Below, in pieces: positions 1,896-47,140 of a stretch of DNA of 64,000 bases. The notes beneath the pieces are model-generated. The model saw only the letters and a list, made by a program, of their open reading frames with translations. It did no database searches and was not told the origin of the DNA. The position numbers were made by a program, and so were the translations under genes. The stretch is taken from IMG/VR virus record IMGVR_UViG_2579779105_000001; one strand, written 5' to 3'. How positions within the stretch are numbered: the first letter of the stretch is position 1; each line of letters opens with the position of its first letter. The DNA is from a virus. Its lineage: Duplodnaviria > Heunggongvirae > Uroviricota > Caudoviricetes.

Positions 1896-2341
1896 TGGGT
1901 AACTTTGGGAATTATTTCATTTTTATCATGGCATTTGTTGCCATCATTGACCGTTTCATTTTTCGTCGCAAGAGTGTTGAGATTTTGAGTATTGGTGACG
2001 CTGTAGTGAAAGAATCCGCTATAGCATTTCCTGTTTCGCTACGTGTTAAGCGAAGCTGGGTCAGCAATGCTCAAATCGAATATTGGTTGCAAGACCTGAA
2101 AAATCCATCTGTGGTTATTTCAGGGAAAACGCGACCAGTTGACGCCTCAAAACGCGGTGAGAGAGAAGAGTATTTGCTCATCGATACGAAATATCTTGAG
2201 CCAACGAAGTGGGATCTGAAAGTCACATTGACTAACGGTAACTGCCGACTGAATCCGCTTTATCGCATTTTCCCTATCAATGACTGCATAGAGCGCCAGT
2301 TTACGATCGAAAAGCGTGAAGGAGACTGGGATGTCAAATAA
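1895..2341 (+). CDS. LydB-like protein (antiholin position)
   Basis: 148 aa; start overlaps upstream stop (TAATG); positional analogy to P1 lydB. Confidence 0.35.
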   Translation: MGNFGNYFIFIMAFVAIIDRFIFRRKSVEILSIGDAVVKESAIAFPVSLRVKRSWVSNAQIEYWLQDLKNPSVVISGKTRPVDASKRGEREEYLLIDTKYLEPTKWDLKVTLTNGNCRLNPLYRIFPINDCIERQFTIEKREGDWDVK

Positions 2342-2951
2342 GAATAATTATGTTCTTCTTAATTATGATGAGTTAAACGAAAAGGGGCTGGCAAAACTCG
2401 TCAAAGAAATCAGCAAAGGTGGTTACAAGATAGCGAGGGTGATCCCTGCAAGTAATGGCAGGAAGAAAGATGGGATCATGACGCGCACGTTTACCCTTAT
2501 TGGTCTTGATGAACAGACAATGGAAGTTCAGGTTAACGATACCGGTGATATATCTGGGATCAAACTGAATGGTAAAACAGTACCGTTCAAGCCAGTAAAA
2601 ACAATGTCGGCTTTGGGGCAATCTCTTGCGGCTTTATTTAATCGCGGAGCAACTTCTTTCCAGAAGTCATTAGCTCGAAAACTTGCTCGTGCAGCAAAAA
2701 ATATTGATGACGAAAATAAGAAGCGGCAGGGAGTTAAATCCAACGCTCAGAAATTAGCTGAAGCGAAAGAATCACGTGATGCACTCCGTGAAGATATCGC
2801 TAATGCTAACGACAAACTGTCTAAACTCCAGAGCAAGTCAGACAAAGTAATGCAAGATACGGGTAACGTTAAAGCTGCCTTGTCTCAGGAAGTAGCTAAG
2901 ACACGTGCTCTTAAAGAAGAAATCGCGCGCCTGGAGGATGAGCATGATTAA
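2331..2951 (+). CDS. coiled-coil protein, Hdf-like (Dar operon position)
   Basis: ATG at 2331 with GGAGA SD; Lys/Glu-rich coiled-coil C-terminus; directly precedes DarA-like gene. Confidence 0.3.
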   Translation: MSNKNNYVLLNYDELNEKGLAKLVKEISKGGYKIARVIPASNGRKKDGIMTRTFTLIGLDEQTMEVQVNDTGDISGIKLNGKTVPFKPVKTMSALGQSLAALFNRGATSFQKSLARKLARAAKNIDDENKKRQGVKSNAQKLAEAKESRDALREDIANANDKLSKLQSKSDKVMQDTGNVKAALSQEVAKTRALKEEIARLEDEHD

Positions 2952-4869
2952 CAATCCTTTACGAATTAATATTCAGTCTACTTTTGCTGATACGATCCCC
3001 GGCTATATGCCAGGTCGCTGGTCTTCAGAAGAATTAAGCGAAGATGACCTGATTTTTGAGGCGGCGACCTTAGAAGATATTGAGCTTGCCTATATGGGCA
3101 ATGAAATTCTGGTTGTGTCTGACGAAGCTATGTTTGAGTCCATAACTACAACCAGAATTCGGTTAGCTCAAACAATGCGAGCTTTCGTCCGTGCGCTGAA
3201 TCGTGGCCTGAATGGTACGAATATTATGGCAGGGACTGATGAAGCCGGGACCGATGAAAATGGACGTAATTGTATTGGTGGTGCGATTATCGGTCGTGTA
3301 CGTCGGGTAGCTAATATCCCTGTTTTGACCGCGCAGATACCGCTTACTGACGGGCAGAGTACAAGCATAATTTTCCACTCTCCAACAGCTGACGGGGCAA
3401 AAATAAAGAGTAACGACGAGCTTGTTGCATTTCAGTTTTTACTTAATAAGCGTAACGTAACTCACGTTGTCGCCCCGATTGGCGGGAGAGATGTTTCTTT
3501 AAGCCAGGTATGCCAGGCGCTATCTAATTTGATTGAGCGTAACAGCGAAAAATTTAAGAAAGCAAAAGAGCGCCAGGACAAAATGAAGGCAGATATTGAG
3601 AGTTATCTCAATGAAGCAGATAAACTGGCAGAAGAACGGTCAATAACAATTGATCAGGTGGACGTTGCGCAACGTGGGCTGACTGAAAAGCGTGCTGCTC
3701 TTACGGAGATGCAAAAAAAACTTGATGCCCAGAAAGCCATCAACGAGGAATTACAAGAAAAACGCGATAAATTGTTGTCTGCTAAAGGTGAAAAAACGAA
3801 GGAGCGAGCGTTTAGTGACCAGCTGCGACATGTAAAACATAATCTTGCCATTGACGGAAAAACAGTGCTGGATAATGGCGCTGAAGTTAATTATGTCACG
3901 TCCGGCAGTGACAATTTCGTTACGATAGTAGCACCTGAAGGTAAATTCAGTATTGATGCCAGTGCTGTCAAAGGAGGCAGTTTGGCAGATGCTGCAACCA
4001 AATTACTTAAAGCCTACCGAGAGCATAACGCAGATAAATATAAAGTTGATGTGTTACCAGGCCAGCAGGAAGACTCCGAACCACCACAGACAGCCCCCGA
4101 GACGAACCCAGTATCACAACCAGAGAGCCAAGATGTAGGTAAATACCACTATGCACTTCAATCTCGCCCGGCTGGTGTTGGTGCTGTGCCGGATGGGAAT
4201 AAAGCCGTGCTTGATCGTCCTGACCAGGCTGATCAGTATTACGGATATGCTCGTCACGGTATCATTACGTATGACCGTAAACTGACAGATGAAGAAGTCA
4301 GCCAGTACGAGTTGCTCTATCTTCCTGATGAAGATGAGCTGAAAGATTTTGCAGGCCAATTGGTTGTGTCCAGCATGTCTAAACATATTGATGGCTATGT
4401 GGACCTGTTTGGCAGTGACCTGAAAACATTCAAGGCGCAAGTGAAAATTCTTTTCCGCAAAGCGTTTCCAAACGTGGCGTATCCACTTGGTGATGGGGAG
4501 AACCTTTTCATTATGGACGTGTATAACGCCCTTCAAAATTATTCAAGCGAAGTAAAAACAGAGCATGTGGTTGAGCCAGAATCACAACCACAACCAGCAC
4601 CAGAACAGGAGCCGGAGCCAGAAGAAGCGGGTGAATCAGCAAGTGAAGCTGATCAGGAGGCAGATAAAGCGCTGGAGTACCTGAAATCCGTGCCGGAGCA
4701 GTTTACATCCCGCGATCTGACGGTCATCAGTACTGAACTTGATCATGTACAGGAAGCAGCAAATGCTCTAATCAGTGCAGGTCGATACGACGAGAACGAA
4801 GCCACTGTGGGTGCAGCAGTTGACTACCTGATCAACATTCTGGCTGAAATTCAGCAGGGAGGTGCTTAA
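2944..4869 (+). CDS. DarA-like virion antirestriction/head-morphogenesis protein
   Basis: 641 aa from ATG 2944 (P1 DarA is about 639 aa, recalled); overlaps upstream stop; acidic C-terminal segments; call is positional, no sequence-level confirmation. Confidence 0.4.
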   Translation: MINNPLRINIQSTFADTIPGYMPGRWSSEELSEDDLIFEAATLEDIELAYMGNEILVVSDEAMFESITTTRIRLAQTMRAFVRALNRGLNGTNIMAGTDEAGTDENGRNCIGGAIIGRVRRVANIPVLTAQIPLTDGQSTSIIFHSPTADGAKIKSNDELVAFQFLLNKRNVTHVVAPIGGRDVSLSQVCQALSNLIERNSEKFKKAKERQDKMKADIESYLNEADKLAEERSITIDQVDVAQRGLTEKRAALTEMQKKLDAQKAINEELQEKRDKLLSAKGEKTKERAFSDQLRHVKHNLAIDGKTVLDNGAEVNYVTSGSDNFVTIVAPEGKFSIDASAVKGGSLADAATKLLKAYREHNADKYKVDVLPGQQEDSEPPQTAPETNPVSQPESQDVGKYHYALQSRPAGVGAVPDGNKAVLDRPDQADQYYGYARHGIITYDRKLTDEEVSQYELLYLPDEDELKDFAGQLVVSSMSKHIDGYVDLFGSDLKTFKAQVKILFRKAFPNVAYPLGDGENLFIMDVYNALQNYSSEVKTEHVVEPESQPQPAPEQEPEPEEAGESASEADQEADKALEYLKSVPEQFTSRDLTVISTELDHVQEAANALISAGRYDENEATVGAAVDYLINILAEIQQGGA

Positions 4870-5237
4870 TGACCATCTCTGTTTTAGACCGCCTGAAATT
4901 AGGTAAAGAGCTATCAGATCTAATGCAGGCGCAGAAAACTGCGCCAGTATTGCAACGCGTCACCATTGGTAAGCAGATTGTTGATGTGATGCTGAAATTG
5001 GGCCTGGGGACTGCCGCGCAACCGGCAGCGGAACCGCAACAACAGACTGATCCTGTTGTAGATGAAGTCCCTAAGATAGTGACTGACTTCCTGGGCGGTG
5101 TGTTCACAAAGTCCACACAAATGGAATTTATTGATGCGCTGCGTGGGATCTCAAACTATGTTGGCGAGTTCCTTACGTTGGAGCAGGCTAAAGTACAGAC
5201 CATAAGCTGGGTGAAAGCCAACGGTTATGCCGGGTAA
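4869..5237 (+). CDS. small protein in DdrA position
   Basis: 122 aa; ATG overlaps DarA-like stop (TAATG). Confidence 0.3.
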   Translation: MTISVLDRLKLGKELSDLMQAQKTAPVLQRVTIGKQIVDVMLKLGLGTAAQPAAEPQQQTDPVVDEVPKIVTDFLGGVFTKSTQMEFIDALRGISNYVGEFLTLEQAKVQTISWVKANGYAG

Positions 5238-5240
5238 TCA

Positions 5241-5270
5241 AAAGGGGGTGAAATCCCCCTTTCACTTCTC
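5241..5270 (+). terminator. hairpin AAAGGGGGTGAAATCCCCCTTT, candidate terminator
   Basis: Perfect 8-bp stem immediately after the 4869..5237 stop; downstream tract only moderately T-rich. Confidence 0.35.
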
Positions 5271-5424
5271 TGTTCTCACATAAATCACACTCTTTTTACA
5301 CTCACAGCTTTCTCTATAGTTGGAGTGTATTTTGAACAAATCAGTTACTTCTGCGCTTTCCGAGGCCGCAGATATTAACAGCGTCATTGCTCTGGTTTCT
5401 TCATTAGAGAGGAAAGAAACACGC

Positions 5425-6717
5425 ATGGGGCGAAGTAGCTACGTAGTCACCAGCAAAGGCGCAGAGGTAAAGACGGCTTTTAAGGTCGTTGATGCCAGCA
5501 GTCTAATCATTTCGAACAACCTTGACGGTACGATTAACCCGGCCTTCCCGGAAGAACTCCAACCACGAGATCGTACCCGGCTATCCAGCAAACTCCAGGT
5601 TAACCGTATTGCCTCCGATTTACGCCCGGCACAATTAACGGATTCCGGTATGAGCAGCCACGGAGCGCCGATAGTTGGTGCGGACAACGTTGTTGAATCC
5701 GGCAACGGAAGGAGTATGGGTATCTGGCGTGCCTATGAGCAAGGACAGGCGGATGAGTATCGCCAGTACCTGATCGACCATGCGAAAGAGTTTGGTCTGA
5801 ATCCTGACGAAATTTCGCAAATGTCTATGCCCGTACTGGTGCGAGAAAGACTCACAGATGTAGACCGCGCTCAATTTGCCCGCGATTCAAACATTAGCGA
5901 TCTGCAAGAGATGGCAGCAAGTGAAAAAGCGTATGCGGATGCGCAATTTCTCACTGAGAGCGTCATGGCGCTATTTAATCCTTCAGATGATGGAAATCTG
6001 CTGGCGCGGTCCAATGATGCGTTTATTCGTGCGTTTTTGCGCGAAATTGGCGATACAGCGACGGCAGGCTTGCTTACTGCCGATGGGCGTCCCACGAAAC
6101 AGCTTATCGATCGCATCCAGAATGCAATTTTTGCCAAAGCGTACAAGGATGAAAGGCTTGTTCGGCTGGTGTCGGAAGAGCCAGATCCGGAAATGCGTAA
6201 TATCCTGACCGCATTAAATACGGCAGCCAGCGATTTTGCGCAAATGCAGTCGCTGTCTGGCGACGCTCACCATGACGCAGTAACAGGCTTAGTGGACGGT
6301 ATAGAGCAGGTTAATGGCCTGGATACACAGGCGATAGCAGCACTCCAGGAAGCAATCAATCTTGTACGTGAAGCCAAAGACAACGGTCAGGCCGTTGAAG
6401 AAGTGATCGCCCAAAGGGGGTTATTCGGTGACAGTACACCGGAAGCTGAGGCATTGGCGCTATTCATCGTAGCAAATAATCGCAGTGCGAAGCGTATGGG
6501 GGCAGCATTCAAAAAAATGGCGCAAAAAATCAACGACGAGCTGACTCATAAACAACAGGCATTGGGCGATATGTTCGGCGGTGGCGATGTTGATCTGCGT
6601 CGTATTTTGTCTGCTGTATCTGATGAAATTGAGGGTGAATTTGGCGAAGGGAAAGGTCTGAACTTTGCTATGTTTGAAAATTCTACAGTTCTAAATAATT
6701 GCCGTATGGGAAACTAA
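5425..6717 (+). CDS. hypothetical protein in Dar/head gene block
   Basis: Track ORF 5320..6717 begins at TTG; the in-frame ATG at 5425 has a GAGAGGAAAG SD; no domain recognised. Confidence 0.5.
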   Translation: MGRSSYVVTSKGAEVKTAFKVVDASSLIISNNLDGTINPAFPEELQPRDRTRLSSKLQVNRIASDLRPAQLTDSGMSSHGAPIVGADNVVESGNGRSMGIWRAYEQGQADEYRQYLIDHAKEFGLNPDEISQMSMPVLVRERLTDVDRAQFARDSNISDLQEMAASEKAYADAQFLTESVMALFNPSDDGNLLARSNDAFIRAFLREIGDTATAGLLTADGRPTKQLIDRIQNAIFAKAYKDERLVRLVSEEPDPEMRNILTALNTAASDFAQMQSLSGDAHHDAVTGLVDGIEQVNGLDTQAIAALQEAINLVREAKDNGQAVEEVIAQRGLFGDSTPEAEALALFIVANNRSAKRMGAAFKKMAQKINDELTHKQQALGDMFGGGDVDLRRILSAVSDEIEGEFGEGKGLNFAMFENSTVLNNCRMGN

Positions 6718-8464: not shown

Positions 8465-8477
8465 CCGGAGGGAAATA

Positions 8478-9476
8478 ATGCAATCACTGAATACTGTTAC
8501 GGATCGCTTCTCCCTGGTAGAGAAAATCCGCAAACACACACCGCAGAACAACCGAAATTACGTCATTCAGTCGGTACGAGACACATTCAACTCGCCAGAA
8601 ACAAAAGAGCGTATCGCGCTGGGTGAGATGTATGGTTATTACGGTCATGGTCGCCGGGCGATGCACTATAACAAAACGAAAAGCCTGAACTTGCCGGAAG
8701 TCTCTGTTGTGATGGTAGATGGGAAGGCTGTTGTATTGGAGAACGTGCCGTCAAACAGGACTATCGACATTTCGATTGACGACAACGGCATTGTTACTCA
8801 TACGCAGGAAATACTGGATACAGACACCGGGCGTATTGTTCAGGGCATGATTAATTCTGGTGCTGGTGGTTGGTCGTGGGCTACATCTGGTCCAGATTCA
8901 TCGGTATCCCTGGTAAAGTCTTTCCACGGCTTTGATTACGTAACTGTGCCTAACTATATCAGCCTCGACAAGAAAAGCCTGATGCTTGAAGCAGCAGAAG
9001 AGCGCGATGCGGCTATTCATGCAGCACTTATCGAACAAGGTTTTACCGATAACGCTGCTACGGATCTGGTTCACCACTTTTCAGCAATGAAAAACCAGCA
9101 AGCCATGCTCGAATCTGCACATCGTGAAGCCCTGGAATCAGAATTGATGCTCCTTGAAGTGGAAAACATACAGCTTCGAGATAAGCTGCGCGCTCAAACA
9201 GCGATGATGGAAAGCCAGGGGGAAAATGCAAAGCAATGCCGCCGGATTTTGCGTGACGCTATCCAGGAAATGCCTGTTTTTATCAGCGCAGAACAGCGCC
9301 GGGCGCTCTGCCGTATGCAGTCTGAAGATGATGCCCGCATAGTGGCTGCGATGCTTGAATCTCTTGGGGCAAATGCTACTTATGGCTTACCGGTATCAGG
9401 CAAGAAAGAACCAGAGTTATCACCGAAGGAGAACAAAAACACCACCCCGTTACTCTTCGTTTCGCGACGGGCATAA
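8478..9476 (+). CDS. hypothetical protein, possibly prohead protease/scaffold
   Basis: 332 aa with GGAGGG SD; C-terminal coiled coil; position after the possible portal. Confidence 0.3.
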   Translation: MQSLNTVTDRFSLVEKIRKHTPQNNRNYVIQSVRDTFNSPETKERIALGEMYGYYGHGRRAMHYNKTKSLNLPEVSVVMVDGKAVVLENVPSNRTIDISIDDNGIVTHTQEILDTDTGRIVQGMINSGAGGWSWATSGPDSSVSLVKSFHGFDYVTVPNYISLDKKSLMLEAAEERDAAIHAALIEQGFTDNAATDLVHHFSAMKNQQAMLESAHREALESELMLLEVENIQLRDKLRAQTAMMESQGENAKQCRRILRDAIQEMPVFISAEQRRALCRMQSEDDARIVAAMLESLGANATYGLPVSGKKEPELSPKENKNTTPLLFVSRRA

Positions 9477-9490
9477 CCGTCGAATGAAAT

Positions 9491-9506
9491 CAAATTTCTA
9501 ACATAG
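9491..9506 (+). promoter_or_regulatory. operator-like motif AAATTTCTAACATAG
   Basis: Member of the recurrent TTTCTAACA(T) motif family, upstream of the RepL-like gene. Confidence 0.45.
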
Positions 9507-9593
9507 TGTATTTATATACACTGTTGATTCTGTCCGATGTGATCGAGTAGGATCGCGGTCACTGCTCCGGTAGCGACTGCCAAAAAAAGCAAA

Positions 9594-9616
9594 AGCCGCT
9601 GAGAAGCGGCTTTTTG
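9594..9616 (+). terminator. rho-independent terminator
   Basis: AGCCGCT-GAGA-AGCGGCT hairpin followed by TTTTT. Confidence 0.6.
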
Positions 9617-9676
9617 GTGTATAAATCCACTGGCATAGATTTATACGGTAGATAGATTTTTTCACGGAACTATCTG

Positions 9677-10639
9677 GTGAATATTTTAAATTCAGTTTCA
9701 GTAACTTTCAACACTTCTGAGTATAAAAACAACACTGAATACCACAAAAAAATCAAAGGTCATCAGTTGAGTTTTTTTGCTCGTCATATCGGTCTTCTTT
9801 CCCCTTCACATAGCGCCATTATTGCCGAGTTCGCCAACCTGGCAGGGGCTACCGATGAATACATGATCCGTCGCTCATATGCTGATATGTCCGAGATTAC
9901 AGGACGCAGTATTTCTACTGTACGCCGGGCATTTGCTGAAGCGACGAAGTGCGGAATGCTTGTTAGGCAACATCAGGTAGCGAATAACAATGCCCAGGTG
10001 TGTAACGTATATCGGTTTACGACACAATTTCTCCACTTCATTCATGTAGCAATGGAGATAGGGGGTAAGCAGGGCATCAAATTTGCCAACGCCACAAAAC
10101 TGGTTAAGCAGTTGATTTCAAAGGTTCGTTATTTTTTTGAAACTGGGAACCCCCTGTTCAAATTGAACAAGTCCCCCCATGTTCAAAATGAACAGCCAAT
10201 AGAAAATAAGAGTCACTCTATAGCAAAAAGAAGAGAAAGATCATGCGCGGTTCAGCCAAAGGCTTCACCAGCAGATAGTTCTCAAGCGGATAATGGGGTG
10301 CTGGATAAAAAACCAGTGATCAGGGAAGAACATACCAACCGCTGCCTGGCGGCGGCAAAAGCGAGAGCTGCAAAGCGTCGTTCAGACGAGGGGCACGCAA
10401 AACGGCAGGCTCTGTATCGTACCGCTGAAAAGTTGGCAAAAAAATTTGCATGGATACGTAGTGCCGCTACCGCAGTGAATAAGCCTAAACAATCCAGCGC
10501 CCTGGATTTCTCAATGGATTATTCTGGCTCCCAGGGGTGTGCAACCATTGGTGAAGCCTTTGACCTGATGAAACAGCGTGGCTATCGGTCTGAATTTGAC
10601 CGGGAGGATTGGTCAATCCCTGCGGGATTCAGGGGATGA
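9677..10639 (+). CDS. HTH DNA-binding protein, possible lytic replication initiator (RepL-like)
   Basis: GTG start; HTH-like segment GRSISTVRRAFAEATKCGML; tandem palindromes inside the gene; operator upstream. Confidence 0.3.
   Translation: MNILNSVSVTFNTSEYKNNTEYHKKIKGHQLSFFARHIGLLSPSHSAIIAEFANLAGATDEYMIRRSYADMSEITGRSISTVRRAFAEATKCGMLVRQHQVANNNAQVCNVYRFTTQFLHFIHVAMEIGGKQGIKFANATKLVKQLISKVRYFFETGNPLFKLNKSPHVQNEQPIENKSHSIAKRRERSCAVQPKASPADSSQADNGVLDKKPVIREEHTNRCLAAAKARAAKRRSDEGHAKRQALYRTAEKLAKKFAWIRSAATAVNKPKQSSALDFSMDYSGSQGCATIGEAFDLMKQRGYRSEFDREDWSIPAGFRG
10150..10194. repeat. two tandem copies of C-run + TGTTCA-N3-TGAACA palindrome (origin-like)
   Basis: CCCCTGTTCAAATTGAACA and CCCCATGTTCAAAATGAACA are adjacent inside the RepL-like ORF. 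Confidence 0.45.
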
Positions 10640-10693
10640 CCTGTGTGCCTACAAAACATCCCAATGATCGGCAAATGCTCGCTCGATGATTTG

Positions 10694-10724
10694 TATTAGA
10701 AAATTAATTTGCTGTTTCTAAATC
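10694..10724. promoter_or_regulatory. pair of operator-like motifs (TATTAGAAAAT / TGTTTCTAAATC)
   Basis: Variants of the recurrent motif at the head of the immI-like region. Confidence 0.35.
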
Positions 10725-10929
10725 GGAATGTATGATCTGCATCATCGACTGAAGTCATCCATTGCTGAAATTTTTAGTTGATCTTCCATGTTTTCAGGCT
10801 TATATTCATGCCGTCGTAGCAAATTCTGCGACCAGGTTTGACAGCCTGAATGTTAGTGCGGACAACCGCAGATTTCCGATATTGCGGTATTTTTGTGTCC
10901 GTAAACCGCGTTACGCCCGAATTATGGTG

Positions 10930-10995
10930 GGGCGTGATGGGGAGGCTTCGGCCTGCTGGTTTCACTAACGCCAGTCTGTCAACCCTGTCACGTCC
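10930..10995 (+). ncRNA. candidate c4-like antisense RNA
   Basis: GGCTTCGGCC tetraloop hairpin, then CACTAAC and CTGTCAA, complementary to GTTAGTG and TTGACAG found at 10838-10858 and again at 11006-11041 over the downstream SD; boundaries approximate. Confidence 0.3.
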
Positions 10996-11052
10996 TGCCA
11001 CCTGTTTGACAGCGGGTAGCAGGTTGTTAAACCTGTTAGTGAGGCCGTAACT

Positions 11053-11277
11053 ATGGTTAATGCCAATCCTTGCTCACGTCCAGAATTCATCTGGCGTTTC
11101 CACTCCCTGCAAAAACACTGCGATCACTTCGCAATTGCCGCAACCGAAAAAGAAGCCCGTTCTCTGATCCCTGATCAGCATGGTGTTCTTACTGGTCGTT
11201 TCTCTACTTCCCCACAACCAAACACTAATCCCTGGTATCGCAATATTACCAATCCCAGCATTGCGGAGGCACACTGA
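11053..11277 (+). CDS. small Icd-like protein
   Basis: 74 aa; GAGG SD overlaps the putative antisense target; a paralogous sequence lies near 46470-46640. Confidence 0.4.
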   Translation: MVNANPCSRPEFIWRFHSLQKHCDHFAIAATEKEARSLIPDQHGVLTGRFSTSPQPNTNPWYRNITNPSIAEAH

Positions 11278-11393
11278 TGGATATCTGCCTTCATGAATGC
11301 TTTTAACCGGATGATGTCGGAGGCTGAGCACCGAGGAAAACGCTGGTATCACCCCAAAATGGGGCAATTCCAGGTGATCGGTTGGGGAGGTGA

Positions 11394-11594
11394 GTGATGG
11401 ACATCATGCAGGCGGTAAAAAAAATCAGGGAAGAACAGGCTGAAGTGTGCCGCCGTAAAGCATGGAGTGTTGGTGTATGGGCCTGGCCTGATAATTACTC
11501 TACTACCGGATGGTTTTGTATTAATGGACTCCAGATCCGGGAAGTTGATTTATCGACGGCTGATATAGTCGGTAATGATTGGTTCGTGACTTGA
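11394..11594 (+). CDS. small hypothetical protein
   Basis: 66 aa; GGAGG SD; followed by a terminator. Confidence 0.35.
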   Translation: MMDIMQAVKKIREEQAEVCRRKAWSVGVWAWPDNYSTTGWFCINGLQIREVDLSTADIVGNDWFVT

Positions 11595-11602
11595 AGCGTG
11601 AT

Positions 11603-11628
11603 GCCCCGGCCTGGTCGGGGCTTTTTTC
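11603..11628. terminator. rho-independent terminator (GCCCCG...CGGGGC + TTTTTT)
   Basis: Hairpin with T-run on + strand and A-run on the other side; lies between convergent genes. Confidence 0.6.
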
Positions 11629-12112
11629 ATGCCTCATTAGTTGAGGTTGCTGCGTCTCCGACTGGTAACAGAGCGGTATTGCGTGGTTCGCCAGCAGGCC
11701 AGCGATAGCCAGACACTCTTGATGTTGGGAATGCGCGAATATTAACCGCATCCCCCTGGTTCCCACCCAGGACAAGCAGATCGCCATTGGCGCGGCGTCC
11801 GACAACGAAGCCTACGTGCCCACCGCCTACGCGGGTAAATACAACGATACATCCGTATGCCGGTGTATCTAATTTCTCGCCCCAATCCAGATAGGATTTT
11901 GCCGACTCAAATCTTGTTGAGCGGATGCCTACACGTTCCAGCATTGCACCGACAAATGCTGCGCACCACGGCGTTTCATCGTCTTTAATTCCGCCGCGCT
12001 TGATGTCGCGCCAAAACTGAACGATTTCAGGGTTGTGTTTAGCGCCTTTTATTTCAGTCAGGCCAATGTGCTTACGTGCTTCAATTAGCCAGCGAGGTTC
12101 AATGTTTGCCAT
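11627..12112 (-). CDS. TIGR02594-family putative peptidoglycan hydrolase (NlpC/P60-CHAP-like)
   Basis: 161 aa; conserved core WCAAFVGAML...GGHVGFVVG typical of the phage-associated TIGR02594 family (recalled). Confidence 0.55.
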   Translation of the reverse strand: MANIEPRWLIEARKHIGLTEIKGAKHNPEIVQFWRDIKRGGIKDDETPWCAAFVGAMLERVGIRSTRFESAKSYLDWGEKLDTPAYGCIVVFTRVGGGHVGFVVGRRANGDLLVLGGNQGDAVNIRAFPTSRVSGYRWPAGEPRNTALLPVGDAATSTNEA

Positions 12113-12186
12113 ATTTTTTTCCGGTCATGGGTTAATAAGTAGGCAAACTATGGGGGGTATGTGATTTTGACGGTAGTATCGTCCCC

Positions 12187-15100
12187 GTGAAAATAACATT
12201 CTCCATACCCTCTCAACCGTACCGCATAGCGGATTTTTTACGGTTTAGAGGGGGTAATCCTTTGGATAAACTACTTCATTCAATCAGTGAAGCTTCCAGC
12301 TTAGGCGAACTGATTGAAATTGTTAGTCGGTTGCATAAATTACGTGCTGTTGCGACCTTTGGCGTTAAGAAAGTCGATGGTGTCAGCATTCAAAAAACAC
12401 GGCGGGCAGCAAACAACGCCGCAGTAGAGCTTCTTAATTCCCTTCCGCCCGGCTTCGATGGGGCGAAATTAACTGACGAACAGCGTCAGATTCTTGCCGG
12501 GTATACCGGTGAAGGCGGCCTGACAGATGGTGAGGGCAGCCAATACGAATACTACACGCCACAGTTTATGGCTGAAGGTATATGGGATCTGTTTGCTGAC
12601 TACGGTATTGATGGCGGGCACGTACTGGAACCATCAGCGGGCACAGGTATTTTCCAGGAGACAAAACGACAGGGCATGATAATGACCAGCGCCGAACTGT
12701 CTCCGATTTCCGGTCGAATAAACCAGCTTTTGCACCCGGAAGACGATGTGAATATCGGGGCGTTTGAGGCGCTGGCGGCGAAAGACGCAATGTATGATCA
12801 CGCTGTTGGTAACGTACCGTTTGGTGAAGGGCGTTCCGGTGTCGCCGGGCTTGATCCGGCATATGCAAACGAGAAGAACGTTGGCAATTACTTTGTGCTG
12901 CGCACGATCGACAAGGTTAAGCCTGGTGGGCTTATCGTATTGGTGGTGCCGAATGGCATGACCGATGGTACGAAATATAAAAAATTGCGCGATAAAGTCA
13001 GCCGTAAAGCGGAATTTTTGGGCGCACATCGTATGCCTTCCGGTACGTTCAGCGAATCCGGTACAGATACCGTGGTGGACGTATGGGTATTGCGTAAACA
13101 CCCGGAAACCTTCCTGGAGATGATCCCCGACACGGATGATTCAACACTCAAATCGGCAAACGTCCTTTGGGATACCTTCCTCAAAGGAAAATGGTTTACA
13201 ACCGAAGGGAAGCGATTTGTTTACGGCGACATGGAACGTACCAGCTTCCGCAATACCCTGGTGGTGAAAAAGGACGGTCGTGTATCCAATGAGTCGATGA
13301 AAACCGCGCTATCTCGTCGCTTTGATAGTCGCATCAATTGGGATTTGCTCGGCGTAACTACTCAGGCATGGCAGGGCGCGAAAGTGGGCGATAAACGCCT
13401 AGTAGGCGGCATCTGGCATGAGTTTGATGGCCTGAAATGGGTCAAGGACACGACAACCAAATCCTCCGCGCTTGATGTAAGTCGATATGGTGTTTCGACA
13501 TTCGGTGATCTGCAAACAACGTTCCAATCAACAAACGGCATTCTGGCTCTGTCATGGGGGCAGATATCCGCGATCGCTTCCGACTATCCATCGGTTATCA
13601 GTGATGAAGTAGCGGCAATGATTCGCTTTGCTGGGAAACAACGCGAAAAAGACCGTGAGCGCATTATGCGCGGTGCGCTGATCGGGCAACTTATCAATAA
13701 AGCGCTGGATAAGCGTAACCTTGGTGAAAACGTCGATGATGAACTGGCTGATGCCGCACGTCTGACGGCTGCCGAAGTTGCTAAATATGGCCCACCACAC
13801 GCCATTAAGCTAAACGACATTACCGAAGCGGGCGCGAAGAACTGGCTGACATTCACCGGGAACGTCAATCAGGACGGTGAAGCATCCGATCTGCTGTCCG
13901 GACGGCTTGATGTTAGCAAAGGGGCTGCTGGTATTGATTTCACTCGTCCGGAACAGGTTGTGACACACCTTTTCAGCGATGTTGCCCTTAATCCTATCAA
14001 TCTTGATGACTTCCGCGAGGCGTTTAAAGGCGAACTGCCAGAAGACGACGATCAAGCACTGGAATACCTGGCGAAATTCGACGATATCGCTATTGATGGA
14101 TATGGTTGCCTGCTACCGATGGGCCGTGCCACTAGCGGTGATATTAAATCAAAAGTGGCACTGCTGGTGGGCTGGCGAGACGCGTCCACAGGAGAGCGGA
14201 AGGCCAACTTTGAGCGCCAGCTTTCAAAAATCGAAGAGAAACGCACGTTTACACCGCTGAACAAAGTCACGGTAAACCTTAACGCACGGTGGTTGGATCG
14301 CCGCCTGATAAAAGAGTTCCTGGCAGAGCAGGGCTATGACGAGTTTAAGTATACAGAACCCGACCTTAAGGTTGAGAACGGCATTCTGGTATCCCCGGAC
14401 GATTACGAAGGTAAGGACGGGGTATTTACTGGCTACCAGCTACGAACCGTAAACGGCAAAAACGGGAACGAGTTCAAGAAAGCGAATAACAAAGATGGCT
14501 TCCTGAATCAGCTTGAGAACTACCTGAACGGTGTTAAACCGCGCGGACAGAACGCTAACGAGTACCTGGACAAAATCGCCCAGCTTGAGACGAGTTTTAA
14601 CGACTGGTTAAGAACTCACCCGCAGGCAGACCAGATCGCCCGCGATTATAACGACGCCTTTAACGGTTATATTCCATTTACCCATTCAGACGCACCCCTG
14701 GGGCTTGAAGGCATCAGCGGGAAACGTATACCGCTTTCTTACCAGAACGAAGAAGTTCGTCGTCTGTCGGAAGATGGGCGCGGGATTATGGGATTCGGAA
14801 CTGGTTTGGGTAAAACGACGACCGCGCTGGCACTGGAAGCCTATAACTTTGAAACCGGGCGAACCAAACGTACCTGTATCGTTGTTCCAAAGGCCGTATA
14901 CCAGAACTGGTATCACGAGGCACAGAGCTTCTACAGTGCAGATGCCTTCGCCAATATGATGTTTATCGGTCTGGACGAAGTGCGCGATGGTGACGGAAAT
15001 ATTCAGACTGCCCCAGTGCTCGACCAGGACGGCACCCCGCGACTTGATAACGACGGCAATCCGATCACCCGTAATGTTGTTAAAGAATCCGCCAGTGCCG

Positions 15101-17778
15101 TTATCGCTCAACGCATGAACATGATCCCATCGTCGAACTGGCGAACGGTCATCATGACAAAAGAGCAGTTCGCATCTATCCCGTTGCGCGATGAAACCAT
15201 CGGAGAAAACTCACAGCAGGCTGTCTTTAATGCCGCCGAAATGGGGCGTCTTGACCTGGCGTCAGGCAAGCACCGTGATGCGCAGAAGAAGAACAAGATT
15301 AAGGACCAGGCCGCGAATACCGGTACAGCGAAGAAGCAGAATATCCCGTACTTTGAGGATATGAACTTCGATAGCGTAATTGCCGACGAAGGGCACAACT
15401 ACCGCAACTCCTTTGGTGCCGGGCGTGAAGCGGGGCAACTGGCATATTTACCTAATCCGGCGGTATCCAAAATGGCCCGTGACATGGCTGTAAAAGCTGC
15501 GTACATGATGAAACGTCACAATGGGCGCGGCGTCGTAATGCTGACAGCAACTCCGCTGGTTAATAGCCCTATTGACGCCTTCAACATGCTGTCAACGGTG
15601 ATCCCTCAGCACGAGTGGATGCACATGGGGATTATTACCCCTGACGACTTTGTCCGAGTGTTCGGTAAAACAGCCACTGTTCAGGTCCAGAAAATTTCTG
15701 GCGAAGTGGAAGAGAAACAGGGGCTGGTGGGCTTCCAGAACCTTGATGGTCTGCGTGGCATTTTCCACCGCTGGACAACGCTTAAAACGGCTTCCGATGT
15801 TGGTGCAACGGTAAAAATCCCGGATATCGTCGAAAACACCTTGCAGATCCCAATGACTCCAGAGCAGCAAGCAGCTTATGAAGAGCTTCGTAAACGCGCG
15901 CAGGAGTTAAGTCGTGGTGATGACGTCACTGTCGATGATGAAGGCAATATCACTCGCGGGAAACCGGATGATTTCATTTTCTCTATCATTCGCGACATGG
16001 ATAAGGTCGCTATCGACCCGGATCTTTACGCCAGCGCTATCACATTCCAGTTCCCTGTAGAACTTACTGAACAGGTGAAGTCTATAGCTAATAACCTACC
16101 AAAAGTGGCTGGTGGGAAAGCGGCAGACGATGCAGAAGAAGCAGAGGAGGATGCGACCGGAGGCCTGGTCAGTACCCGTACCAGCAAGGTTGTAGCTACA
16201 ACATTTAGTGAGCATCCAAATCACGTCGAATTGCGTGCCAGCATTGACCTGGAGGCTGAAATACTCAAGGCAATTGCTGATGCAGGCATCGACATGAAAC
16301 AGGTGTCACACCCGATCCCGCCTAAGTATGCCGCACTTATCGAGAACCTTCGTGAAGGGCTTAAGAACGGTAAGCAAATTATCTTTATCGACGAGAAAGC
16401 CCAGCACCAGAAACTACGTCGCATCATTGCCAGTGCGTTGCAAATGCCAGAGCAGGAGATAGGCATTATCAATGCTACGACTGTTAGCCAGGCTGGTGGT
16501 GTTAAGCTGAAAAAGGTCAAAAAACCGACCGAACCGACGCCAAACAAAGACGGTGAATACAAAGAAGGCGCATGGGAAACCTACTACAGTAAACTGGCCC
16601 AATATGAGGATTATCTCTCTGCTAAAAATGATGCTGGCCTTGAGGGGATGGAAGGTATTGCTGCCGACTATAACGAAGGGCGCACGCAAATCATTATCTG
16701 TAACAAGAAAGCCGAAGTAGGTATCAACCTGCATATTGGAACGACCGATATTCACCACCTGACACTACCCTGGACTCCTGCCAGTATCGACCAACGAAAT
16801 GGGCGCGGTGCGCGCGTAGGTTCTCCGCAAGAGAAGGTTAATGTTCACTATTATTGTGGCAAAGGCACATTCGATGACTTCCGTCTGGATACGCTTAAAC
16901 GTAAGAAAGACTGGATCAAGATGGTGATGACCTCCGATATGTCAGAGATCGCCAATGGTGATGCGGATGACGCTGATGAACGCGCCATTATGCTGGCGGC
17001 AAATCCGGAAGAACGACGCGCAATTATGGCTCGTCAGTCGAAAGAACGTGAGGAACGCCTGCGACTTAAAGCGCAACGCGAAGCCAATAATGCTCTCGAT
17101 AACTACCTGAAAGCGGCGAATGCTGCCGGGAAGGATATCGGCATGATGGAGGCAGAACTGAAAAGCGCGATGGAGCAGGCGCAACGATACCAGAGTGATC
17201 TGGATGGACTGATTAAGAGCGGCATCAACAAAAACGGACAGAAATATACGCTTTCAGCACTAAGCAAAGCTAAAAAAAGAGTGCGTGAATTGCGATTTGC
17301 AATCACCAGGGCGAAGGACGCGGATACTGTTATGAAACGCTCTCGTGGTGATGTGGAGCGTGCTATTAAGTCTGGTGTGCTGGATATCAGTATCGATGTT
17401 ATTCAGAACCCGCAGGAGTATATGCGCACTGGCAAGAACATCCTGTTGCATAAAGGTAGTTACTACCGTGCAGTCATTGATGCTGAATACGAGACAACGG
17501 CGATTGTACGCGTGACACAAATTGAGGGCGAAAAAGCGCAATACACCTGCCGCGTCGCCTGGCTGGATAGAGCAAGTCGCAACTCTCGTTCTCCTGGCTC
17601 AACCATGACATTACCGTTTGACTCAGTGGTTGAAGCGGTAACATTTGAAGAGGGGGTGGCTGAATCACGAGAAATAGCGGCACGTGGTGTTCAAAGCCAC
17701 CAGCTTTCAACCTCTCTTTCTCGCGATCAATTCTATGACGCTATTCGTAGCGGTGTTATGCGGGTAACCGCACGCTGA
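12187..17778 (+). CDS. darB: DarB-like large polyvalent protein: N6-adenine methyltransferase + SF2 helicase
   Basis: 1863 aa; MTase motifs EPSAGTG and NVPFG; helicase Walker A GFGTGLGKTT and DEGH box; start (GTG 12187) uncertain. Confidence 0.7.
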   Translation: MKITFSIPSQPYRIADFLRFRGGNPLDKLLHSISEASSLGELIEIVSRLHKLRAVATFGVKKVDGVSIQKTRRAANNAAVELLNSLPPGFDGAKLTDEQRQILAGYTGEGGLTDGEGSQYEYYTPQFMAEGIWDLFADYGIDGGHVLEPSAGTGIFQETKRQGMIMTSAELSPISGRINQLLHPEDDVNIGAFEALAAKDAMYDHAVGNVPFGEGRSGVAGLDPAYANEKNVGNYFVLRTIDKVKPGGLIVLVVPNGMTDGTKYKKLRDKVSRKAEFLGAHRMPSGTFSESGTDTVVDVWVLRKHPETFLEMIPDTDDSTLKSANVLWDTFLKGKWFTTEGKRFVYGDMERTSFRNTLVVKKDGRVSNESMKTALSRRFDSRINWDLLGVTTQAWQGAKVGDKRLVGGIWHEFDGLKWVKDTTTKSSALDVSRYGVSTFGDLQTTFQSTNGILALSWGQISAIASDYPSVISDEVAAMIRFAGKQREKDRERIMRGALIGQLINKALDKRNLGENVDDELADAARLTAAEVAKYGPPHAIKLNDITEAGAKNWLTFTGNVNQDGEASDLLSGRLDVSKGAAGIDFTRPEQVVTHLFSDVALNPINLDDFREAFKGELPEDDDQALEYLAKFDDIAIDGYGCLLPMGRATSGDIKSKVALLVGWRDASTGERKANFERQLSKIEEKRTFTPLNKVTVNLNARWLDRRLIKEFLAEQGYDEFKYTEPDLKVENGILVSPDDYEGKDGVFTGYQLRTVNGKNGNEFKKANNKDGFLNQLENYLNGVKPRGQNANEYLDKIAQLETSFNDWLRTHPQADQIARDYNDAFNGYIPFTHSDAPLGLEGISGKRIPLSYQNEEVRRLSEDGRGIMGFGTGLGKTTTALALEAYNFETGRTKRTCIVVPKAVYQNWYHEAQSFYSADAFANMMFIGLDEVRDGDGNIQTAPVLDQDGTPRLDNDGNPITRNVVKESASAVIAQRMNMIPSSNWRTVIMTKEQFASIPLRDETIGENSQQAVFNAAEMGRLDLASGKHRDAQKKNKIKDQAANTGTAKKQNIPYFEDMNFDSVIADEGHNYRNSFGAGREAGQLAYLPNPAVSKMARDMAVKAAYMMKRHNGRGVVMLTATPLVNSPIDAFNMLSTVIPQHEWMHMGIITPDDFVRVFGKTATVQVQKISGEVEEKQGLVGFQNLDGLRGIFHRWTTLKTASDVGATVKIPDIVENTLQIPMTPEQQAAYEELRKRAQELSRGDDVTVDDEGNITRGKPDDFIFSIIRDMDKVAIDPDLYASAITFQFPVELTEQVKSIANNLPKVAGGKAADDAEEAEEDATGGLVSTRTSKVVATTFSEHPNHVELRASIDLEAEILKAIADAGIDMKQVSHPIPPKYAALIENLREGLKNGKQIIFIDEKAQHQKLRRIIASALQMPEQEIGIINATTVSQAGGVKLKKVKKPTEPTPNKDGEYKEGAWETYYSKLAQYEDYLSAKNDAGLEGMEGIAADYNEGRTQIIICNKKAEVGINLHIGTTDIHHLTLPWTPASIDQRNGRGARVGSPQEKVNVHYYCGKGTFDDFRLDTLKRKKDWIKMVMTSDMSEIANGDADDADERAIMLAANPEERRAIMARQSKEREERLRLKAQREANNALDNYLKAANAAGKDIGMMEAELKSAMEQAQRYQSDLDGLIKSGINKNGQKYTLSALSKAKKRVRELRFAITRAKDADTVMKRSRGDVERAIKSGVLDISIDVIQNPQEYMRTGKNILLHKGSYYRAVIDAEYETTAIVRVTQIEGEKAQYTCRVAWLDRASRNSRSPGSTMTLPFDSVVEAVTFEEGVAESREIAARGVQSHQLSTSLSRDQFYDAIRSGVMRVTAR

Positions 17779-17870
17779 AAAGAGAGCGCCGGGAACTAAA
17801 AGAGCGTTTAACCAGGCTCAATCAGCAATGCATTGATTATCAAGGCGAAGGCGTCACACTGCGTAAAAAG

Positions 17871-18503
17871 TTGGCTACAGCGCAGAGCATTATCGAAACA
17901 TTAAAGCGAGAGTGCTCACAGCTTGGTCACGATCTGAACCGTGCTTGTGGCATGGGACAAAGACCAGAGACATTTCCACTTATGTATGATGGGCGGGATG
18001 CCATTGCCTACATCCATGAGTATCCGCACGGCCTGGTTGCGGAAACTGGGCAGCGTGGCGAAGCACTGCTGACGGCTAATTACCATCAACAAATCAGAAC
18101 CAATCGCCTGTTAACGATGGATGTGATCCCATCGGTGTGGGGAACGCCGCTTTACTATCGCCTGCCGGGCTTCGAAAAGGACTGGAATACCGACATAGAC
18201 GAATGTCTCGCAGATAAAATTATGGCGTACCTGGAGACGGATTTTCCGCGCTTATATCGCCGGATTATGGACTCTAAGGATGCGCCAATCGATGAATTAA
18301 AAATGCGTCCGGAGACGCTGGAGGCAATCAAGCAGACGGAGTTTGATACTGTATTCAGTGTGGCCTGCATTCCAAGCTGTTTCCATGAAAGCATTCCGTT
18401 CATGCAAGGAGATCGTCGTCAGGAAATCATTGACGCTTGCCGGGTATGGGCGAACGAATGGGATAAGAAGAATGGGGGTGTAGAAGATCTTTACGGGAAA
18501 TAA
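17871..18503 (+). CDS. hypothetical protein
   Basis: 210 aa; track start is TTG; frame stays open upstream to 17751 across the darB stop; an in-frame ATG exists at 17952. Confidence 0.4.
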   Translation: MATAQSIIETLKRECSQLGHDLNRACGMGQRPETFPLMYDGRDAIAYIHEYPHGLVAETGQRGEALLTANYHQQIRTNRLLTMDVIPSVWGTPLYYRLPGFEKDWNTDIDECLADKIMAYLETDFPRLYRRIMDSKDAPIDELKMRPETLEAIKQTEFDTVFSVACIPSCFHESIPFMQGDRRQEIIDACRVWANEWDKKNGGVEDLYGK

Positions 18504-18505
18504 TG

Positions 18506-18516
18506 TGTTAGAAATC
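18506..18516 (-). promoter_or_regulatory. operator-like motif (reverse complement AGATTTCTAACAC)
   Basis: Variant of the recurrent motif, directly downstream of the 17871..18503 ORF. Confidence 0.35.
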
Positions 18517-19156
18517 TAAAATTACGATTCGAATGTATTGATTGTGAAGGTAACTTAACATAGAATTTTCCTTGCTGGTGGGCGGCACCCACGTTTCGCT
18601 TGCTGGGCTTGATAGTCACTTATTGGTTATTGTTCGCCCACCAGCATTTAACAAATTAAAGCGTTAGAAAAGTATAGTAACGCAAGAGCACGCTTTGGCA
18701 CCGTGCAGGCCAAAGTTCAGCAGGTTTAGTGCGGAAAGTGGTTTCAGAGAGAGCACTTTGCGGAGTAAACGACAGTACATGTTGAGCCACGGAAGGTCTT
18801 TTTAAGGTGTTCATTGATGATGGTCCGGCAGAGAGTAACGGTACATGCTGCATCTAATCATCAATGCACATCTTCAACATTAAGGAGGCATAGGGATTTT
18901 TGTGGCGGTTACCTTTTGCCCTGAGTCTCCTTAATGTTGCGGTAATGCACCTATGCGGATGTGGCCTTGCATTGTGTCTTGAAAGAATGGGGTAAGGCCG
19001 GGGACATCCCCAGGGGGAGGCACCCCCGCTGCAACGAACAGCCACAGACGGCAGTCGAGTGATGGGAACGTGCAAAGACTTTAAACCTCGTTATGGCTGG
19101 CGTGGCAAACGCGACAACCGAGACAGAGCGGTGACGGGCGGAGAGAGTGCCGCATC

Positions 19157-19278
19157 AAGAAAGAAGCCGACTTGTGATCCCTTTCAGCGGGCATTTGAAA
19201 GTGAATCCAGTTCAGGCAGTCGGCTTCTTTCTTGTGTGAGATGTAGCGTATTTGCCCATCTTCGGGTGGGCTTTTTTA
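19157..19278 (+). ncRNA. candidate small RNA: 16-bp inverted repeat stem-loop plus intrinsic terminator
   Basis: AAGAAAGAAGCCGACT (19157-19172) pairs with AGTCGGCTTCTTTCTT (19218-19233); then GCCCA-TCTTCGGG-TGGGC + TTTTTT at 19254-19278; no convincing ORF. Confidence 0.35.
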
Positions 19279-34051: not shown

Positions 34052-34320
34052 GGGCAGGTGTTCCCTTCCGCAAAGTAGGGAAAACTGCTATCAAGTTCAT
34101 CACACCATCTGCGATGGTCGTAGCACCAAAACGCCTCCCACGGTGCACGGAAATACTTCATCCACCAGGACACTCGATCAGGTATATCTGCTGGTGGCAG
34201 TTCTTCTGGCAATAATTTGCCTGATAATTCCCTTTCCGCCCGCGACAGCATTTTTTTGAGGCTCGCGTTCTCTTTTTCAAGCTCATCTACGCGCACCTGT
34301 AATTCAGCTTTCGTTGGCAT
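34036..34320 (-). CDS. coiled-coil protein with Cys-rich C-terminus
   Basis: 94 aa from ATG 34320, which overlaps the upstream stop (ATGCCAACGAAAGCTGA); ends CPQCRG. Confidence 0.4.
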   Translation of the reverse strand: MPTKAELQVRVDELEKENASLKKMLSRAERELSGKLLPEELPPADIPDRVSWWMKYFRAPWEAFWCYDHRRWCDELDSSFPYFAEGNTCPQCRG

Positions 34321-35598: not shown

Positions 35599-35604
35599 AT
35601 TAAT

Positions 35605-47120: not shown

Positions 47121-47140
47121 TTCTGCCTCCGCTGCGTAAC

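Follow-up and report, generated by a model that had tools for sequence, protein, structure and literature searches.

A truncated darB gene in a D6-like plasmid prophage of Escherichia coli, probably disabled recently

The large open reading frame described here is the homologue of the darB gene of phages D6 and P1, an anti-restriction gene that was already annotated; very probably it persists as a truncated copy in a recently disabled D6-like plasmid prophage, in which its product would no longer be a delivered anti-restriction factor and its divergent neighbour, the orf16 homologue, would be of the endolysin type. The window analysed, a 64-kb stretch entered as a viral record in IMG/VR, comprises the opening 64 kb of contig JJLX01000053.1 from E. 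coli 1-182-04_S1_C3. Judging from its sequence, it is most of a P1-related plasmid prophage, collinear from 1265 to 64000 with phage D6, itself a relative of P1. The two divergent frames reported in the initial annotation are both present, one of 1863 codons counted mechanically from a GTG (12187..17778, plus strand) and a small one on the minus strand (11627..12112). P1 DarB is a capsid-packaged methyltransferase-helicase that shields injected DNA from type I restriction of the EcoK/EcoB type. What seemed to be a short class of DarB is a truncated copy of the annotated gene, an ordinary damaged prophage gene and not a new variant, and it should neither seed a new family nor be the yardstick for the length or architecture of DarB.

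The identification of the large protein as a DarB homologue combining a methyltransferase with an SF2/SNF2 helicase, and devoid of a nuclease, was borne out by Pfam domains and by motifs identical to those of P1. The EcoKI/TaqI-like N6-adenine methyltransferase core (12628..13107, plus strand) carries motifs I (EPSAGTG) and IV (NVPFG) and matches Eco57I as well as N6_Mtase, the latter at the borderline (20.3 bits against a cut-off of 20.4, E = 3.8e-4). C-terminal to it, the helicase (14737..16821, plus strand) contains motifs I, II, III and VI (GTGLGKTT, DEGH, TATP and QRNGRGAR) and matches SNF2-rel_dom (49 bits), ResIII and Helicase_C, all above their thresholds; no nuclease domain was detected in the frame with Pfam. 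All the motifs quoted initially (EPSAGTG, NVPFG, GFGTGLGKTT and DEGH, the last as ADEGH) occur in the translation, and these, together with TATP and QRNGRGAR, are the same in P1 DarB (YP_006479.1), whose 2255 aa on record agree with the length of about 2255 aa given initially. The NCBIfam assignments to DrmD, DpdE and ZorD (18-45 bits against cut-offs of 500-1500) were rejected as generic SNF2 similarity. The protein is 44% identical to P1 DarB residues 1-1844, collinear from residue 1, 92% identical to D6 DarB residues 1-1836 and 98.2% identical over 1838 aa to the allele of pHX138.33gt_1, the gene being a mosaic of the D6 and pHX138 alleles with a switch near 13,500. It also matches the DarB-like PHROGs 11801 and 10089, while the PHROG 1685 profile is covered only at positions 1-1855 of 2278. 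Both D6 orf15 (2278 aa; ASR76325.1, labelled ‘similar to P1 gene darB’) and the pHX138 allele (2280 aa; WP_238059270.1) occupy the same locus beside the same hydrolase gene; the window copy, however, is cut after codon 1836.

The position of the start codon matters because in P1 the N-terminal ~30 residues of DarB constitute a capsid-targeting signal, a function demonstrated for P1 only (PMC9024508). The start had been described as unclear, a GTG without a Shine-Dalgarno (SD) sequence, and that GTG at 12187 is spurious. A conserved TTG at 12262 corresponds to Met1 of P1 DarB and follows a strong SD (GAGGGGG), and from there on the two N-termini align residue for residue (MDKLLHSISEASSLGELIEIV versus MNKLSMGVFRCSSVSEILKYI). 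From this comparison the true start is the TTG, which fixes the start of D6-type darB, and the product therefore has 1838 aa instead of 1863. Exactly this 1838-aa protein is on public record as gene call EZJ98315.1, and look-up of the 1863-aa product from the GTG returned no exact match. D6 and pHX138, like four further relatives, have in-frame stops within the 75 nt upstream of the TTG, and positions 12187-12261, counted as coding in the mechanical frame, are non-coding. They belong to the divergent intergenic region and darB leader (12113..12261), in which a promoter scan predicted a sigma-70-like promoter on the plus strand (TTGACG-16-GAAAAT, 12167-12194). A leader hairpin is also predicted on the plus strand (12202..12266; MFE −28.7 kcal/mol, z = −5.3), where CCCUCUC would pair with the SD GAGGGGG and UCCA with the UGGA overlapping the TTG; it is kept in D6 and, with one compensatory pair, in the divergent pHX138 leader, whereas the P1 darB leader has no hairpin sequestering the SD.

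The initial annotation had also remarked that the protein is about 400 aa shorter than P1 DarB. The shortfall is real, but its cause is a deletion private to this isolate and not a natural length. On the plus strand the truncated gene (12262..17778) consists of 1836 native codons, followed by Ala-Arg from the junction and a stop, and the ~400 missing residues are explained by the loss of ~3.8 kb relative to D6 and pHX138 (blastn coordinates) at a 4-bp TAAC microhomology (17765..17768), where darB codon 1836 is fused to the interior of pmgS. The junction was resolved base by base on both its darB and its pmgS side, with the darB stop lying three codons on. Accordingly, the proposed domain-resolved alignment is not collinear over the full length of P1 DarB: it stops at the position matching P1 residue 1844 (residue 1836 in D6 and pHX138), and P1 residues ~1845-2255 have no counterpart. 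The deleted block, which in D6 and pHX138 lies downstream of darB, takes in the C-terminal ~442-444 aa of DarB together with ulx, orf13, pmgM, orf11, pmgR and PmgS residues 1-162. None of these gave a tblastn match in the window with the D6 proteins as queries, nor did P1 queries for the genes of the block, Ulx included. What remains of pmgS (17766..18503, plus strand) encodes D6 PmgS residues 163-407 at 98.8% identity by tblastn, out of frame with darB, without a native start and with its upstream frame closed; it matches the PmgS-like PHROG 1660 at profile positions 235-404 of 405, and within it 17982-18503 is entered in the public record as an ORF of 173 aa.

This junction is private to E. 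coli 1-182-04_S1_C3, no match spanning it being found in 5,426 complete E. coli genomes or in 72,556 plasmids. Among the D6-type relatives examined, DarB is full-length (2278-2280 aa) with ulx next to it: in a 406-member 90% cluster, 14 of the 14 other members among those listed have 2280 aa, and eight further contexts all show a DarB of 2278-2279 aa followed by ulx (8/8). Conservation within the DarB family is lowest in the C-terminal region that is missing here; this region yielded no named domain in Pfam or PHROGs beyond the DarB family profile itself and no match in a PDB sequence search.

We propose that illegitimate recombination at the TAAC repeat removed the ~3.8 kb in this one isolate, so that the darB frame would run two codons into DNA derived from pmgS and then stop, giving the 1838-aa product. 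The window retains intact catalytic motifs, an intact DarB N-terminus and intact Dar partner genes. In P1, Ulx aids the localization and packaging of DarB, and deletion of pmgR leaves heads and tails unjoined (PMC9024508, PMC10695390, PMC12810830); this essentiality of pmgR rests on deletion analysis, a CRISPRi screen having missed the gene (PMC10695390). The D6 Ulx and PmgR proteins are homologous to their P1 counterparts, PmgR with 31% identity. Because P1 needs pmgR and its Ulx promotes the packaging of DarB, this element is likely to be defective and unable to deliver its DarB: by analogy with P1 genetics, the protein would be packaged poorly or not at all in the absence of Ulx, and probably also of the C-terminal region, and without PmgR heads and tails would not give complete virions, the element persisting as a plasmid-maintained, recently disabled prophage. 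The earlier view of a capsid-delivered factor is thus unlikely to apply to this copy, given the broken frame and the loss of ulx and pmgR with the deletion. Loss of the fast-evolving C-terminal region by itself might leave DarB active, and a displaced or additional ulx or pmgR may lie outside the 64-kb window, in the last 15 kb of the source contig or on other contigs of the assembly, such as those of a P1-like plasmid in the same cell.

We consider it very improbable that the frame encodes an intact, naturally shorter DarB-like protein of ~1840-1860 aa, packaged and delivered like that of P1, as the initial annotation implied. In its favour, the gene keeps an intact promoter region, SD and N-terminus, the last being the part aligned with the capsid signal, along with every methyltransferase and helicase motif; hdf, darA, ddrA and ddrB are intact too, and the part lost is the family's least conserved one. 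Against this, the frame stops three codons past a junction with the interior of pmgS that is known from one isolate only, the relatives examined all have 2255-2280 aa, and both pmgR and the packaging aid ulx are missing. An assembly or chimeric-read artefact, with the real plasmid carrying full darB, ulx, pmgM, pmgR and pmgS, is hardly to be expected either. The contig does come from a draft assembly of short reads, and the junction has been seen nowhere else, but a 4-bp overlap cannot give rise to a k-mer mis-join, both sides of the junction are single-copy and 3.8 kb apart, and an independent assembler, Logan, gave the identical junction from SRR1186468 with 0 mismatches over 18.3 kb, although the two assemblies probably share the same underlying reads. 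Moreover, the same element carries a second private deletion, in ant, 6 kb from the first.

Another reading would hold that the 1838-aa core, released from Ulx and from the fast-evolving C-terminal module, is a stable, active enzyme kept in a plasmid now non-inducible, with its antirepressor deleted and head completion lost, and acting inside the resident cell instead of being delivered by the capsid; we give little credence to such a retained enzyme, and just as little to the resident-cell activity that forms part of this reading, for instance modification of DNA or interference with the restriction of incoming DNA by type I systems. If it held, the gene would be a natural separation-of-function allele and the DarB C-terminus a dispensable delivery or specificity module. 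Under the preferred interpretation of a damaged prophage gene, the isolate still supplies a natural C-terminal truncation allele that bears on the role of this hypervariable region.

The divergent gene (11627..12112, minus strand) encodes a 161-aa protein that had been described as a putative hydrolase of the TIGR02594 type, and the profiles agree: it scores 143.3 bits with NCBIfam TIGR02594 (cut-off 70.55) and 31.4 bits with Pfam CHAP (cut-off 26). It is the same protein as D6 orf16 (ASR76417.1), and its sequence characterizes it as a conserved cell-wall hydrolase of the cysteine-peptidase/amidase type, with Cys50 (PWCAAF) and His99 (GGHVGF) as candidate catalytic residues of a papain-like fold. 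It had no sequence relative in the PDB, and the AlphaFold model built from its sequence alone was too poor to use (pLDDT 40); a literature search retrieved no biochemical or genetic characterization of D6 orf16. Identical copies are found in more than 11,000 collection blocks, being very common in D6-like plasmids of Enterobacteriaceae, and adjoin a full-length DarB in 8/8 of the places listed. In P1 the divergent neighbour of darB is prt instead. In several relatives IS200/IS605 elements separate darB from the hydrolase gene, inserted at ~12176-12190 in window coordinates, so the pairing of the two genes pointed out in the initial annotation appears not to be a functional one.

LydA is a holin and LydB an antiholin, and P1 Lyz is a SAR endolysin. 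The genes lydA and lydB lie at 1569-2338, ~10 kb from the hydrolase gene, and no homologue of P1 Lyz was found in D6 or in the window (tblastn best E = 0.34), so that the hydrolase is more likely an endolysin than an ejection enzyme. The absence of alternatives suggests that the orf16 protein is most likely the endolysin working with the LydA/LydB pair, and in D6-type phages a CHAP/TIGR02594 enzyme thus appears to stand in for Lyz. A role at ejection, as suggested initially, has no specific support, and that the protein is virion-associated and opens the cell wall at this step seems to us unlikely. Its best PHROG match is phrog_1259 (E = 8e-47), ‘baseplate hub subunit and tail lysozyme’, a name that RefSeq gives to D6 orf16; the match falls at the C-terminal end of the 1179-position profile, which indicates that other phages carry this domain as a fusion with a large tail protein. 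The window protein, by contrast, is free-standing, D6-type phages already have the tail transglycosylase Sit, apart from which no other muralytic enzyme is annotated in D6 to accompany LydA and LydB, and the gene has been assigned to the lysis module (PMC6799933).

As had been noted at the outset, darB sits apart from the genes resembling hdf and darA: in D6, in the window and in P1 alike its operon is separate from hdf-darA-ddrA-ddrB. In the window these Dar partner genes (2331..6690, plus strand) lie ~5.5 kb away and are intact, with full-length tblastn matches to D6 proteins at 92-98.5% identity and Pfam matches to DarA_N, DarA_C and ddrB-ParB. P1 regulatory motifs do not transfer to the window: a late-promoter pattern built from P1 LPpro and LPlyz (AAGTGA-N7-TANNNT) gave one match where 0.58 were expected and none near the darB locus, and the P1 C1-operator consensus gave 0 matches with up to three mismatches allowed.

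Relative to D6, simB, orf80, ant82, orf23/24 and tciA/B are absent; we rejected decay as the reason in favour of segment replacement, typical of the mosaic D6-like group. A truncation of pmgU was likewise rejected, since the window carries an intact 312-aa ORF that has only its C-terminal 124 aa in common with D6 PmgU, which points to a mosaic allele and not to a deletion. The ImmI antirepressor gene (ant, D6 orf18) is a remnant (11277..11394, plus strand) made up of a nine-codon stub (MDICLHECF and a stop) and an out-of-frame C-terminal piece with residues 198-235, left by the loss of 571 bp between imperfect direct repeats of 16 bp; full-length ant is kept in 10/10 of the best-matching plasmids. 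A comparable case is pSO21_75 of Salmonella Typhimurium ST213, likewise a D6-like plasmid that persists after deletion of morphogenesis and anti-restriction genes (PMC6799933), although there the loss is of 15 kb and covers the tail, lysis and anti-restriction modules, whereas the present element lost 3.8 kb, with the DarB C-terminus, ulx, pmgM, pmgR and the 5′ part of pmgS, plus 0.57 kb in ant.

The large open reading frame of the window (12187..17778, plus strand; 1863 codons counted from a GTG) is the darB gene of the P1/D6 family in a truncated state, and no new variant of it. The initial annotation had located both this frame and its divergent neighbour (11627..12112, minus strand, 161 aa) correctly, and its recognition of a DarB homologue was borne out: the translation contains the motifs EPSAGTG, NVPFG, GFGTGLGKTT and ADEGH, and a Pfam search returned SNF2-rel_dom, ResIII and Helicase_C over threshold, N6_Mtase as a borderline match and no nuclease domain. 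Assignments to DrmD, DpdE or ZorD were rejected, their NCBIfam scores lying far under the cut-offs and reflecting generic SNF2 similarity. The gene is already known and carries the darB annotation in D6 as well as hundreds of plasmids; the copy studied here has the enzymatic core of the family but, because of a deletion, neither its full length nor the accompanying ulx gene.

In megablast searches against phages, the sole full-length relative of the window was the P1-like plasmid prophage Escherichia phage D6, and window positions 1265-64000 are collinear with the D6 reverse complement, apart from segment swaps of the kind usual in the D6-like group. An exact protein match identified the source of the darB product as contig JJLX01000053.1 (79,222 bp) of assembly GCA_000627795.1, from Escherichia coli 1-182-04_S1_C3, on which gene coordinates equal those of the window and an 1838-aa product is on record (EZJ98315.1 / WP_251981782.1). 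This shorter length is the correct one. Although the frame opening at GTG 12187 does exist, the product starts at TTG 12262, since this start is conserved and the upstream extension is non-coding in relatives. The TTG matches Met1 of P1 DarB in alignment (MDKL… versus MNKL…) as well as the annotated starts of D6 and of plasmid pHX138.33gt_1 (NZ_CP091837; hereafter pHX138), and a candidate Shine-Dalgarno (SD) sequence, GAGGGGG, lies 6 nt 5' of it. Within the 75-nt stretch between both codons, a 1-nt difference in a T-run brings stop codons into the upstream frame in D6 and four other D6-like loci, and in pHX138 a stop lies 5 codons upstream of the darB start. The choice of start matters, as the first 30 residues of P1 DarB constitute its capsid-targeting signal (PMC9024508).

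The initial annotation had described the protein as some 400 aa shorter than P1 DarB, which implied a compact DarB; its shortness is instead the result of a deletion. DarB comprises 2278 aa in D6 (orf15, 'similar to P1 gene darB') and 2255 aa in P1, and the window protein aligns with residues 1-1836 of D6 DarB at 92% identity. In nucleotide alignments, positions 11282-17760 of the window correspond to 6869-13346 of the D6 locus (L001) and positions 17762-20673 to 17144-20055, so that ∼3.8 kb of D6 is missing from the window. In pHX138, darB is full-length (2280 aa), and downstream of it lie ulx, orf13, a VRR-NUC gene (pmgM) and homologues of pmgR and pmgS. Read base by base, the junction in the window is …GGTGTTATGCGGG-TAAC-CGCACGCTGA…, with the TAAC at 17765-17768. 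The DNA 5' of this tetranucleotide is darB, which in pHX138 goes on as …TAAC-TGGGAAAGAT…, and the DNA 3' of it is the interior of pmgS, which in D6 reads …AAGGA-TAAC-CGCACGCTGA…. Past the junction the darB frame continues as Ala-Arg-stop. The pmgS remnant corresponds to residues 163-407 of D6 PmgS (98.8% identity), in a frame that differs from that of darB, with stops upstream. When D6 and P1 proteins were used as tblastn queries, no match to ulx, orf13, pmgM, orf11, pmgR, the DarB C-terminus or PmgS residues 1-162 was detected in the 64 kb.

When a 701-nt junction probe was searched against 5,426 complete E. coli genomes and 72,556 plasmids, no match reached 80% coverage of the probe; each half of it matches on its own. 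The exact 1838-aa protein is recorded only on the NCBI contig and in the Logan assembly of run SRR1186468, whose contig carries the junction and agrees with the window base for base across 18.3 kb, both assemblies probably deriving from common reads. In the 90%-identity cluster of this protein (406 members), all 14 other members listed have 2280 aa. Likewise, the exact hydrolase sequence, present in over 11,000 collection blocks, adjoins a DarB of 2278-2279 aa, followed by ulx, in all eight contexts listed. Since a 4-bp overlap cannot produce an assembler mis-join, we take the deletion, as judged from these sequence comparisons, to be genuine and private to one isolate or clone.

The deletion removed the C-terminal 442-444 aa of DarB, for which no Pfam domain or PDB relative was found and which match only positions 1859-2278 of the DarB PHROG. 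No other part of the protein evolves as fast: P1 and pHX138 share 10-27% identity there versus 50-75% over the enzymatic cores, while D6 and pHX138 share 61-67% in the C-terminal part. Retained are a predicted sigma-70-like promoter and the SD, the DarB N-terminus, all methyltransferase and helicase motifs in a form identical to P1, and the Dar partner genes hdf, darA, ddrA and ddrB. Gone with the C-terminus are ulx and pmgR. In P1, Ulx 'aids DarB localization' and its loss leads to EcoB/EcoK sensitivity (PMC9024508, PMC12810830, PMC10695390), while deletion of pmgR leaves heads and tails unjoined, with no virions formed (PMC9024508), an effect missed for PmgR by a CRISPRi screen (PMC10695390). 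The D6 proteins are homologous to their P1 counterparts (Ulx, 46% identity, E = 5e-44; PmgR, 31% identity, E = 3e-5). A truncated DarB may still be produced but most likely could not be delivered.

Another private lesion, 6 kb from the darB-pmgS deletion, affects the gene for the Rha/Roi-like antirepressor ImmI (D6 orf18): 571 bp were deleted between imperfect 16-bp direct repeats, so that at 11277-11394 (plus strand) the gene consists of a stub of 9 codons and a C-terminal remnant in another frame. The full gene is present in all ten best-matching plasmids. Taken together, both deletions suggest a prophage becoming locked in as a plasmid. The damage appears recent, because the other backbone genes tested are all full-length and 92-100% identical to D6. 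Hence, we infer that the element is most likely a recently disabled prophage kept as a plasmid; D6-like plasmids made defective by deletions have already been documented (PMC6799933).

The divergent neighbour was rightly described as a TIGR02594-type hydrolase: it scores 143 bits against this NCBIfam model (cut-off 70.55), also passes the CHAP threshold, and is the homologue of D6 orf16, annotated as 'putative peptidoglycan hydrolase'. A role at ejection, as first proposed, is not supported and seems improbable. Among PHROGs, the protein best matches the C-terminal end of a large profile named 'baseplate hub subunit and tail lysozyme', so that in other phages this type of domain is used on virions; however, D6 already encodes Sit, a tail transglycosylase that serves entry. 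Moreover, D6 encodes LydA and LydB, tblastn with the P1 endolysin Lyz detected no homologue either in the window or across the complete D6 genome (best E = 0.34), and a study of D6-like Salmonella plasmids assigns the gene to the lysis module (PMC6799933). We therefore rate a putative endolysin, a somewhat probable function, above an ejection enzyme. The divergent layout is conserved in the D6 clade, whereas P1 darB has prt as its divergent neighbour; because of this difference and of IS200/IS605 insertions between both genes, we see no evidence for a functional hydrolase-darB pair. These elements, which encode either both TnpA and TnpB or just TnpB, occur in the intergenic region of several relatives, at 1977-3666 of the pHX138 locus (L003) and at 8716-9885 in the loci of two others (L013 and L014), the insertion point corresponding to about window 12176-12190, a position that separates −35 from −10 in the predicted darB promoter.

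The darB leader is predicted to fold into a hairpin (12202-12266, plus strand; −28.7 kcal/mol, z = −5.3), in which an anti-SD CCCUCUC would pair with the SD GAGGGGG and occlude the TTG start. D6 shares this hairpin, as does the divergent pHX138 leader, where one pair is compensatory (C-G to U-A); no such hairpin was found in the P1 darB leader. This predicted fold may repress darB translation in the D6 clade. The gene is also an allelic mosaic with a switch at ∼13,500: before it, identity to D6 is 95-99.6% per 250-nt bin, and over 13500-17760 it is 73-96% to D6 and ∼98% to the allele of pHX138, E. fergusonii and Shigella dysenteriae (98% amino-acid identity to pHX138). Family-wide, divergence of the C-terminal ∼600 aa of DarB greatly outpaces that of the enzymatic cores, a pattern that would be consistent with diversifying pressure on a specificity or target-interaction module.

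Further segments differ from D6. D6 tciA/tciB are replaced at 20673-21765 by a 275-aa SPFH/Band_7 protein (20925-21752, plus strand; Pfam 108 bits), and the second icd/antirepressor region (orf80, pmgF, orf82) is replaced at 46583-47764 by two minus-strand ORFs with signal-peptide-like N-termini (46728-47120, 130 aa; 47141-47764, 207 aa); simB is absent from the window. The pmgU homologue (34304-35242, minus strand) has only its C-terminal 124 aa in common with D6 PmgU, and the adjoining 2.5 kb (34679-37232), including a DUF551 protein (36393-37235), is unlike D6; decay of pmgU was rejected in favour of mosaic replacement, as the 312-aa ORF is intact. ARAGORN called tRNA-Asn(GTT), tRNA-Thr(TGT) and tRNA-Ser(TGA) on the plus strand at 19738-20443, whereas GenBank and RefSeq give the D6 features at this place (MF356679, 7145-7850) the opposite orientation; the strand assignment in the D6 record therefore looks wrong. 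Finally, the homologue of D6 orf6 (22437-23012, plus strand) contains a Thoeris anti-defence Tad2-like domain (PF11195, 38.5 bits) and its pHX138 copy is named 'Thoeris anti-defense Tad2 family protein' by PGAP, so that a second, putative anti-defence gene would lie within a few kb of darB.
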